DNA of 60,442 nucleotides. Source: a virus (Duplodnaviria > Heunggongvirae > Uroviricota > Caudoviricetes). A program made the position numbers. Numbering within the stretch: position 1 is the stretch's first letter; each line of letters begins with the position of its first letter. The stretch is taken from IMG/VR virus record IMGVR_UViG_2660238269_000009. One strand, written 5' to 3'. Positions 42,001 to 45,000 of the stretch are shown here, one piece after another.

Positions 42001-45000
42001 CCCTTCGCCTCATACCCGGCATCTTTCGGACGATACGGCCCCTGATAATGTTCCGCGAACAGAATGCGCTCTGTGGCGGGGAAATACGCCCTCAGGCTTT
42101 CCTTGTTGCACCCGTTCCAGCGTCCGGACGGCTTTGCCCAGATAATATGGTTCAGCACACTGAAGCGTTCACGCATCATGATTTCGATATCAGATGCCAG
42201 GCGATGGCCACAGAACAGGTAAAGACTTCCGGCAGGTTTCAGCACCCGCCAGAACTGCGCAAGACACTGGTCCAGCCACTTCAGGTAATCATCGTCGCCC
42301 TTCCACTGGTTATCCCAGCCCTCAGGCTTCACTTTAAAGTACGGCGGATCCGTGACTATCAGGTCAACAGAATTTTCGGGTAACGACCGGATAAATTCCA
42401 GGCAGTCGGCGTTGATTAACTCACAACTGGATATTTTTACAGTGTTAAGCATGGATCATTAAGCCTGTCTCTGATAGGCTCATTCTTCTTTTGCGCAAAG
42501 CAGTGGGCCTGAGGTTTGCTTGTGATCCAGACGCATGAGCAGATGGCTGGTGAGTGCCCCTAACACCCACCAGCCGCCCATTTACCACAAATAAAAAAGC
42601 CTTCATGACTGAAGGCGTCTGTAACAACCGAACTGATAGTCTGCCAGACCCGCCATAACAAGCTGGGTCAGTATTAACTGGCAGCGTTCGCGTGAAAGGT
42701 AAGTATTCTGCGCAATCTCCCCGACTGTCGCCGGTTCGGTGACGCTTAATTCATTAAACACCACTCTGGCGGTTTCGGTCATATCCTGCTGTTTCAGCAT
42801 GTCTTTTTCCCTTTTCAGGTTAACGTGACATACCAATAACTCTTGTCGAAAAAGCCAGCAAGCTGAAAGACCCGTATTCGCAACCACCAGCGCGTTTAAC
42901 GCCCTGTGTCGTTTTTCGGGCATAAAAAAACCCGCCAGTGGCGGGGATCTTTTGATAAAAACGACAAAGGCACCATTAAGGTGCCTTTTACACAGGGGCA
43001 GCAGGCTTGTCATCACCTTATTGCTACTCCTGGCTTCCAGTTCGGAAGTCTCACAAGTCCCATCAGGGTACAGCGACAGTATCAGTCAACACACTATGTG
43101 TGTCAATATAAATTCATATCGAATTCGATAATCGTTTTCGATTATCGATACAGATAAGCCATCCCTATCCCGTGCAATACCGCCCGTTTAATATTCTCAA
43201 ACTCATCTTCCGCAATCATAGGAACAATATAATTTCGCCCCTCCCAGGTTCTAGTTTTTATGCGATCCAGTCGGCTCAATGAAACCGTCATCAACATGTC
43301 ACATTTTACCCAACAAGTAATATGCTCATTACCAGGGATGGGGTTTTCTGATAACTCATGATGGCAATCTCTGCGAGGAATCGGTTCAGTAGTGCTTATT
43401 GGTACCACTGTTACCAATTGATTGTTGTGTCTGTTTCTGGACACGACTACCACTGGCCTGACCTTGACTATTTCCGGAACAACCATTCCCCGAAAATCAC
43501 ACATTAAAACAGAACGAACAGACGGCTGATACTTTAACACCATAAATCTCTTTGCCTGATAATGACGACTTGTGAACTCCACTACAAACAAAATGATTCT
43601 GCTGAACAGGCAGTTTCGCACTGTACATTATAACCTGTTAAGCCAACAAAAAAACCCGCTCGGCGGCGGGGTTTGCTTACTTTGCCATCGCGTACAAAAT
43701 CGGCAAAATATCAGATTTACATGAAATATATGCTTTTTAATCCAGTTTTGCAATATTTTGCTGTGAAAATGTGGTCTTTTGTTTTGAACGTGTTTTCGTT
43801 AAAAGCAATAAAGCTTGGCTATCAAGCTGTAGAAAAATGTGCTTCATTGCAACCCAGCGTTCAGTAAATGTCTCAGACCAGTTTTTTGATGTCACTCCCA
43901 CCAGTGATGCCAGATCCCGGTATTCATAACCTTCCCCACCAAAAAGCTCAGCTTTTACCGCTTGCGCCGCCAGCCAGATCAACTTCTTCAGACGTTCCAG
44001 CGTTTTCCCAGCTATTTTTCTGGTACCGGATTGAGTATTAAATTCATTCCACGCCCACTGCGTTATCGCAATCTGATACTCCCAGCAAATGTTTCCGCCG
44101 TAACACCACAACAACCACGCCTTCTGATGCGCTTCCAGTTCCAGAACTGCACGTCGCCATGATGATGTCGAAAACTCAACCGGACTGACCAGAGCAATTG
44201 ACGTCCCTTTCGCCAGTGATTGTTTACCCGGGATCGGTGGGTTATCCCGCGTGATCATTTTTCCGGTTACCTCATCGCGGTAACGAATTTTTTTGCGTCT
44301 GTAACGCCCTGTATCGAACAGTGCATTTTCCTGCCAGGCTTCCAGTTGGCCTTTTATCGACACACTGAGATCCGCAGTGGCAATCATGAGTTGCTCACGA
44401 ACAAACTGTAAATACTGGTTATTCATGCACACCCACCTCTGTAATTCTTATCTCCAGCCGTCCACCAGATACTGGCTGGCCACGTACAATATTGATTTCA
44501 TCAAACTGCTCATCGTCCATTAACAACCCTGCATGCGTCAGCGCATCCAGCGGCGCTTTCAGGATATTATCCAGGTCACGGCGGCGCTTATCCGGTGGCT
44601 CTGCAATCACCTTTATCGCCAGCCTTCCGGACAGGCTTAATTTCAGCCGCTGCTGGCGAACAATAAGCGCCACTGCCCGGCGATAGCGCTTTCCCTCCTC
44701 AGATATAAAATATGTGCTGCCACGACGTCGCCAGTAAGTATTCACCGTCGGTGGATAAGGCAAAACAAACTCTATACGCATCAGTAACCTCTTTTACCCA
44801 AGCACGCCGGTTGCAAAGGCGTGATCAAGAAAACGAAAAATTAACTCAACCTGAGAGCCGTACTTTTTCTCAAACTCCAGCGGGTCTGCATGAAGTTCGT
44901 TGTGATGTTCCCGGCACAACGGTAGCGTGAAAATATCGTGGGCCTTTGTCCCCATTCCCCCCTGACCATGACCAATCAGGTGATGCGGATCGTCAGCAGG

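Follow-up and report, generated by a model that had tools for sequence, protein, structure and literature searches.

The 60,442-nucleotide (nt) virus record IMGVR_UViG_2660238269_000009 (Caudoviricetes), an E. coli prophage referred to here as the window, encodes a MazF/PemK-fold toxin of the YifN family whose gene is followed, 70 nt past the stop codon and on the same strand, by a gene for a conserved structured small RNA. The original prediction, made from the nucleotide sequence, had described the toxin gene as solo and devoid of a cognate antitoxin. The lack of an adjacent protein antitoxin is borne out; however, the gene has a conserved RNA candidate partner downstream, with its own promoter and covarying base pairs, which was detected at 76 of the 79 assessable genome loci, and the description as solo does not hold. 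We consider it highly probable that the protein and the RNA form a linked module. The missing partner of the toxin is thus most likely an RNA, which is invisible to a reading based on open reading frames (ORFs). Taken alone, the protein is an annotated member of a known superfamily, whereas searches of Rfam, PADLOC, and the searchable literature did not find the linked RNA or the module.

The YifN-type toxin and the RNA gene downstream of it

The toxin ORF carries the motifs RPVVVVS, VTVVPISTT, and KCDMLMTVSLSRL, and residues 12-95 of its product match the Pfam PemK_toxin profile PF02452 with 52.6 bits (curated gathering score, 23.1; E = 6.1e-14). An AlphaFold2 model built from 74 homologues is confident (predicted local distance difference test score, 94.9) and the MazF/Kid/CcdB beta-barrel fold is confirmed; the motifs, the profile search, and the fold model all agree with the MazF/PemK core pattern noted earlier. 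The "internal insertion" ascribed to the protein proved not to be a single insertion, as the extra length consists of longer loops after strands 3 and 4 and a beta-hairpin at residues 95-106, all conserved family-wide. In a hidden Markov model alignment, Glu24, Arg29, and Ser50 of the toxin correspond to Glu24, Arg29, and Thr52 of E. coli MazF, and these three residues are unchanged in all 74 toxin-family sequences. The ratio of nonsynonymous to synonymous substitution rates is 0.06 to 0.24 where synonymous sites are unsaturated, indicating purifying selection. The protein can be regarded as a putative sequence-specific endoribonuclease.

The identical RefSeq protein, WP_071525566.1, is named "type II toxin-antitoxin system PemK/MazF family toxin", and positions 42400-44500 of the window are 100% identical to E. 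coli 2013C-3181, whose RefSeq annotation likewise names the toxin PemK/MazF; no NCBIfam model scored above threshold against the protein. Many homologues bear the JGI/IMG name "uncharacterized protein YifN, PemK superfamily", and hhalign relates the family to E. coli K-12 yifN with a probability of 98% (E = 2.1e-13). The family also matches PHROG 15698, to which no function is assigned there, and no PADLOC model matches it. Its profile finds 822 representative clusters at E < 1e-10, but the gene is rare in E. coli (24 of 5426 complete genomes), and among cultured phage records it was found only in distant Vibrio elements. Compared with the MazF/PemK/Kid type II toxins (PF02452), the window toxin is only 13 to 22% identical to any solved MazF (E of ∼0.03 against PDB sequences), is longer (133 amino acids [aa]), has an extra beta-hairpin, and lacks an adjoining MazE/PemI-type antitoxin, as is the case at about 76 of 80 genome loci. 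K-12 yifN (b3777), a member of the same family located between ppiC and rep, is likewise solitary, but it is a decayed pseudogene without a detectable adjoining RNA (L146:4013-4461; NC_000913 3960012-3960460), whereas the window gene is intact; the missing RNA fits the decay of the whole module in K-12.

The ribosome-binding site of the toxin gene is weak in the window and in its relatives, with no conserved strong Shine-Dalgarno sequence, and the promoter scan called no same-strand promoter for the gene, nor is one conserved before it in relatives. A perfect TATAAT (43632-43627, minus strand) lies 84 nt before the toxin start, just past the terminator of the late promoter pR' (see below); it has no recognizable −35 element and is also present in toxin-less prophages. 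A plus-strand antisense promoter (43534-43563) is unconserved in Enterobacter and was taken as a chance occurrence.

In an alignment of E. coli, Enterobacter, and Xenorhabdus sequences, the noncoding block 3' of the toxin gene is far better conserved than the synonymous sites of the toxin. The RNA encoded there folds into two hairpins, one at the 5' end and another termed P1, and into a long helix (P2) with a conserved apical loop, GAUGACAA; it includes the segment GAUGACAAG and has a minimum free energy of −43.1 kcal/mol (z = −4.27). Its promoter comprises a −35 hexamer TTGACA (43106-43101), a 17-nt spacer, and a −10 hexamer GATACT (43083-43078); in Enterobacter, Klebsiella, and Xenorhabdus, both hexamers are kept, whereas the spacer varies. 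An equivalent promoter with at least 8 of 12 matches was found at 64 of 86 RNA loci, compared to 0.5% of control positions, with 6 nt between its end and the start of the RNA in most of them; in Caulobacteraceae, it is located within the 3' end of the toxin ORF. The terminator previously assigned to the toxin gene (42988-42966) turns out to belong to this separate, independently promoted RNA gene, which is also found in toxin-less prophages.

Covariation argues strongly for the proposed structure. In an 88-sequence alignment, which had been fitted to the model and so favors the structure, although the margin is large, 96.7% of the cells are paired (31 to 55% in slid controls), compensatory changes are seen in 14 of the 17 base pairs, and double-change cells number 225, compared to 56 ± 7 after shuffling; none of 500 shuffles attained the values observed. 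No Rfam 15 family covers positions 42989-43071 of the window or comes near its gathering score there; the sole overlap in the window is a weak isrK match to the terminator portion (42925-42984; 19.8 bits; gathering score, 50; E = 0.3). Searches with the RNA from 8 other loci against Rfam 15 also returned no family, with only a weak istR hit in L113 (26.9 bits against 45; E = 0.25). Translation of the RNA into a peptide was rejected, as 17 of 86 copies have a different triplet in place of the conserved AUG and the ORF length varies from 3 to 121 codons, and the lack of tandem repeats in positions 42500-44000 led to rejection of a ToxI-like array. The 66-aa "hypothetical protein" that RefSeq annotates in some genomes, WP_134790173.1 (42819-43016, minus strand; L002:3421-3618), lies wholly over the RNA and the two terminators, and its annotation as a gene is probably erroneous.

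Complementarity exists between the 3' tail of the RNA terminator (CUUUGUCGU, or CUUUGUCAU in other copies) and the conserved loop AUGACAAG (42958-42966 versus 43007-43014), and Pasteurellaceae copies alter the tail and the loop together (G to A with C to U). These base changes hint at a loop-tail pseudoknot or an alternative fold of the small RNA.

Linkage of the gene and the RNA across bacteria

A covariance model (R1) built from 12 enterobacterial RNA copies was searched against 95 sources (754 kb) and gave 88 matches at E < 1e-3, located directly past the toxin gene wherever that gene is present and on the same strand. With the filters off, two further loci were recovered, completing the count of 76 genome loci given above. 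The RNA follows the toxin gene in Pseudomonas, Caulobacteraceae, Oxalobacteraceae, Rhodocyclaceae, Neisseria, Pasteurellaceae, and Acinetobacter, as well as in Geobacter, Anaerolineales, Saccharibacteria, Lloydbacteria, and a Kingella plasmid; in all, the gene and the RNA occur together in four kinds of prophage late region, the Kingella plasmid, and diverse chromosomes. The RNA is present in each of the 24 toxin-bearing E. coli genomes and stands alone in 13 more. Across phyla, the mean identity of the RNA core is 63%, compared to 56% for the protein, and the divergences of the two are correlated (r = 0.72; Mantel p = 0.001), which may merely follow species relatedness.

Each locus has a single R1 match except for L021 (Oxalobacteraceae), where RNA copies were found at 4449-4581 and 8225-8356, the second lying 3.8 kb downstream at the edge of the locus. 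In a Saccharibacteria metagenome-assembled genome (MAG), a group II intron (RF02001, 136 bits; L048:4611-4907) starts ∼80 nt past the RNA end.

The converse association is looser: in roughly one-third of cases, from phages and Pseudomonas, the RNA has no accompanying toxin gene. When metagenomes were sampled from the RNA side, 68 of the 101 copies with enough upstream DNA had a YifN-like ORF; the others were preceded by a RelE/ParE-antidote pair, a candidate DUF3077-like ORF (our own label; NCBIfam gave no match), an insertion sequence (IS), or nothing, and many of them come from one syntenic Pseudomonas locus. On viral contigs, the RNA stands alone in several contexts and once lies beside a frameshifted toxin gene. 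At this Pseudomonas locus, the slot before the RNA is occupied by YifN in 30 cases, by a HigA-type pair in 10, by the DUF3077-like ORF in 3, and by something else or nothing in 8; in L176, an IS sits in the slot just upstream of the RNA, and in the Pseudomonas-type loci L191 and L248 the RNA stands alone with its promoter, in the order LysR regulator, RNA, ketoacyl synthase. In L215, the RNA (5' end at ∼2907) lies behind a RelE/ParE-type toxin-antidote pair (2308-2897; TIGR02683, 130 bits; TIGR02684, 135 bits), and this arrangement, with the RNA 10 to 27 nt past the antidote gene, recurs in L164, L178, L199, L200, L230, and L255; the RNA is thus also associated with a second RNase-toxin module that is unrelated to the first. 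A toxin that hardly ever occurs without the RNA and an RNA that often occurs alone make up the pattern expected of a toxin and its antidote.

In prophages that are collinear with the window and lack the toxin, the missing 497-nt segment extends over the toxin gene with its 5' leader as well as the −35 element of the RNA promoter; the −10 element and the RNA stay in place. In view of the general gene-RNA module, the toxin-less prophages most likely arose through deletion of this segment. In such prophages (L106, L107, L122, and L124), the RNA directly follows pR', and in L107, L122, and L124 it serves as a short transcript between pR' and the late terminator tR'.

A protein antitoxin was sought in several ways. 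Neither the ORF list of the window nor its RefSeq annotation contains an antitoxin-like ORF flanking the toxin gene, and phmmer searches of all window ORFs with MazE, PemI/Kis, ChpS, and EndoAI found none, although these were only four queries of limited sensitivity. The statement that no small antitoxin ORF lies upstream was upheld: the only upstream ORF (43 aa, 43628-43497) spans an indel junction and is unconserved in other prophages. The 65-aa gene farther downstream was rejected as an antitoxin candidate, as toxin-less prophages also carry it, the modules of Enterobacter, Klebsiella, and Xenorhabdus lack it, and two terminators lie between it and the toxin gene. No adjacent antitoxin gene is called next to any of the homologues in Enterobacter, Klebsiella, and Xenorhabdus prophages, and the toxin gene is monocistronic in Pseudomonas, Geobacter, Alcanivorax, and Atlantibacter chromosomes. 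Among 80 genome loci chosen out of 285 relatives, no conserved cluster of small neighboring ORFs was found, and a plausible adjacent antitoxin ORF was present in only 2, each unique to its locus: one ribbon-helix-helix (RHH)-like, 7 nt upstream of the toxin homologue in one MAG, and one XRE-type. Distant relatives (37 to 41% identity) do have upstream protein genes; on the small plasmid p5217, for example, this is an 86-aa ORF, and in Vibrio elements it is LexA-like.

The late-operon setting

The toxin gene is the first ORF of the late operon and lies in the lambdoid cargo slot between Q/pR'/tR' and the lysis genes (Table 1), in keeping with its earlier placement directly after a Q-like gene and the late terminator. 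The Q protein carries the RefSeq label "bacteriophage antitermination protein Q". The promoter just past the Q stop codon has a −35 element TTGCAA (43753-43748), a 17-nt spacer, and a −10 element TATATT (43730-43725); counted from the inferred +1 (A 43718), it is followed by TG at +6/+7, TATTTT at +9 to +14, GCC at +15 to +17, and U at +25 (43694). The phage 82 pR' has an extended −10-like element, GCC at +15 to +17, and a pause at U +25 (PMC5001585), and it is from these features, rather than from the published 82 sequence, that the promoter behind Q appears to be an 82-type pR'. The terminator tR' is positioned ∼50 to 70 nt beyond the pR' start, and homology to other phages with PF06323-type Q proteins ends exactly there.

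Table 1. Features of the toxin-RNA region and its surroundings in the window
Feature	Coordinates	Strand	Basis or description
YifN-family MazF/PemK-fold toxin gene	43142..43543	minus	ATG 43543 to TAA 43142, 133 aa
Conserved structured small RNA, ∼110-120 nt	42952..43071	minus	Covariance-model match, 133.6 bits
Small-RNA promoter, sigma-70 type	43078..43106	minus	Promoter scan, 10/12 matches
Terminator of the small RNA	42988..42966	minus	3' end of the small RNA gene
Second intrinsic terminator, directly 3' of the small RNA gene	42924..42945	minus	Terminator scan
497-nt segment missing in collinear prophages L106 and L127	43096..43592	minus	Alignments; bounded by CAT microhomology
Intrinsic terminator tR' (t82-like)	43648..43670	minus	Stem 43670-43655 plus T-run (terminator scan)
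Late promoter pR', phage-82 type, with sigma-dependent pause element	43694..43753	minus	Promoter scan and sequence layout
Q antiterminator gene, phage-82 type, 231 aa	43737..44432	minus	Pfam PF06323 Phage_antiter_Q, E = 6.3e-90
65-aa gene	42603..42800	minus	Weak winged-helix-like matches (TrmB, MarR); PHROG 331
Three phage tRNA genes (Ile-CAU type, Arg, Arg)	41105..41353	minus	Downstream of the methyltransferase gene

Past tR', the same strand carries the toxin gene, the two terminators, the 65-aa gene, a DNA methyltransferase gene, the three tRNA genes, and other cargo, followed by the holin, lysozyme, and terminase genes and then by the head and tail genes. Toxin homologues (65 to 79% identity) in Enterobacter, Klebsiella, and Xenorhabdus prophages hold the same slot before the lysis genes, behind three unrelated Q families (PF06323, PF03589, and PF06530), and in all three settings a promoter and at least one terminator precede the toxin gene. 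Late, Q-dependent expression of the toxin, as originally proposed, is a reasonable inference from this layout of Q, pR', and terminator.

The 65-aa gene accompanies the downstream DNA methyltransferase gene in prophages with or without the toxin. The tRNA layout downstream of the methyltransferase gene is that found upstream of stx in the Shiga toxin (Stx) phages; here, unrelated hypothetical genes fill the stx position. On the other side, upstream of a DUF968-RusA-Q block, lies an IS4-like IS421 transposase gene, annotated as frameshifted (∼45845-48000; L001:9934-11393), with a hokD type I toxin gene nearby and a second Q-family gene further on. IS66 copies break up the tail region, and the prophage may be defective or composite.

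Possible functions of the module

Of the mechanisms considered, we favor a type III-like one with the RNA as candidate inhibitor of the toxin, and we give it about an even chance. The small RNA, made in excess from its own promoter, would bind the YifN-type ribonuclease (RNase) and block it, with the conserved apical loop GAUGACAA serving as a pseudo-substrate; each toxin mRNA would, in addition, carry the RNA at its 3' end. The RNA would be transcribed constitutively, whereas toxin message would appear only through terminator read-through or Q antitermination. Upon induction, or if Q is provided in trans, the toxin would be produced faster than the RNA, leading to cleavage of cellular RNA. 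A role of the toxin in host shut-off or abortive infection, as suggested in the original prediction, is possible.

As in the type III systems ToxIN, CptIN, and TenpIN, a noncoding RNA gene is adjacent to the toxin gene and linked to it. However, the window toxin falls outside the ToxN/AbiQ, CptN, and TenpN sequence families and shares only the superfold with them, and its RNA, encoded downstream with its own promoter, is strongly conserved across phyla. Literature searches on YifN function, solitary MazF, lambdoid-phage PemK, new type III systems, and the RNA sequence blocks found nothing relevant, most subscription journals being outside their coverage. Several points weigh against inhibition of the toxin by the RNA. 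The RNA is single-copy, downstream, and nonrepetitive, unlike all known type III antitoxins, which are upstream tandem repeats. The high conservation of the RNA core could mean that its partner is a conserved host component and not the toxin, and the presence of the RNA beside RelE/ParE-antidote pairs or alone indicates that its function is not strictly tied to YifN. The TATAAT at 43632-43627 could also allow the toxin gene to be transcribed to some extent in the lysogen. The fold, the catalytic residues, the lack of a protein antitoxin, the RNA gene, and its near-obligate linkage to the toxin are established here, while the RNase activity of the protein, its binding and inhibition by the RNA, and when each is expressed are inferred. 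The RelE/ParE-type neighborhoods also hint that the RNA may be a regulatory or immunity element shared by several RNase toxins. A wider proposal, to which we give somewhat less than an even chance, is that YifN-type toxins and the RNA constitute an unrecognized cross-phylum class of RNA-antitoxin systems for phage defense or phage competition, with phages and prophages that carry the RNA alone using it as an antidote or decoy.

The gene and the RNA might instead be a functional pair without inhibition through protein binding, the RNA being either a trans-acting antisense regulator of the toxin mRNA (type I-like) or a substrate, cofactor, or product of the protein, such as an RNA processed or stabilized by YifN; we find this unlikely. 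In Enterobacter and Klebsiella, the 5' leader of the toxin gene includes AUUGUCAUCACC, a complement of the RNA loop GGUGAUGACAAG (−22.6 kcal/mol; rank, 0.007), and comparable loop-leader matches are seen in Neisseria and Kingella (complementarity sites include L094:3971-3987 and L109:3476-3487). Such complementarity nevertheless does not hold generally: ranks have a median of 0.76, those below 0.05 (6 of 76 loci) are about as frequent as expected by chance, and the window, where the leader (43563-43553) matches weakly, ranks at 0.36. The RNA loop also has an ACA core, as do many MazF cleavage sites, and a pair without inhibition is also consistent with the RNA remaining well conserved where the toxin is absent. 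It is far less probable that the toxin is truly solitary, silenced by tR' and used for late host shut-off, with the RNA an unrelated late leader analogous to lambda 6S or StxS, the short pR'-tR' transcript of Stx phages (PMC7547250). The toxin does lie behind pR' and a terminator in all prophage contexts, and in the toxin-less L107, L122, and L124 the RNA is, like 6S and StxS, a short constitutive transcript between pR' and the late terminator. In contrast to those transcripts, the window RNA, which matches no Rfam family, extends well beyond lambdoid phages and shows linkage to a toxin family. It follows the gene in chromosomes and plasmids that have no Q or pR' (Pseudomonas, Caulobacteraceae, Neisseria, Geobacter, Acinetobacter, Saccharibacteria, and Anaerolineales), which a phage leader cannot account for, and the interpretation of the RNA block as a mere late leader or a relic lambda-type pR' was dropped after the covariance-model search.

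Adjacency could also reflect insertion-site preference, with the RNA gene acting as a recombination anchor or hot spot for toxin-type cargo. The varied occupancy of the single syntenic Pseudomonas slot and the IS in L176 speak for such a hot spot, but outside Pseudomonas the RNA is not a core gene, the gene and the RNA move jointly through unrelated contexts, the RNA promoter overlaps the toxin ORF in Caulobacteraceae, and the protein and RNA divergences are correlated, though species relatedness could produce this correlation; on balance, we hold this explanation to be quite improbable. There is, finally, only a slight chance that the protein is a type II toxin of the conventional kind, with its protein antitoxin encoded at another site, either by a distant gene or by the 65-aa winged-helix-like ORF. 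The upstream protein partners of the distant relatives and the RHH-like ORF of one MAG would agree with that, whereas the phmmer searches, within their limited sensitivity, revealed no MazE/PemI/ChpS/EndoAI-like ORF in the 60-kb window, and the 65-aa gene has the distribution and the intervening terminators described above.

Databases label hundreds of these genes "type II toxin" despite the absence of a protein antitoxin. If the RNA is the missing partner, it would account for the tolerance of "orphan" MazF-like genes and would represent both a new architecture in RNA-based toxin control and a new structured RNA family that extends from Enterobacterales to candidate-phyla bacteria; it would also suggest that phages carry the RNA alone as a counter-measure. 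For Shiga-toxin-type prophages, the module would put a regulated RNase first in the late operon, ahead of the site that the Shiga toxin genes occupy in Stx phages.

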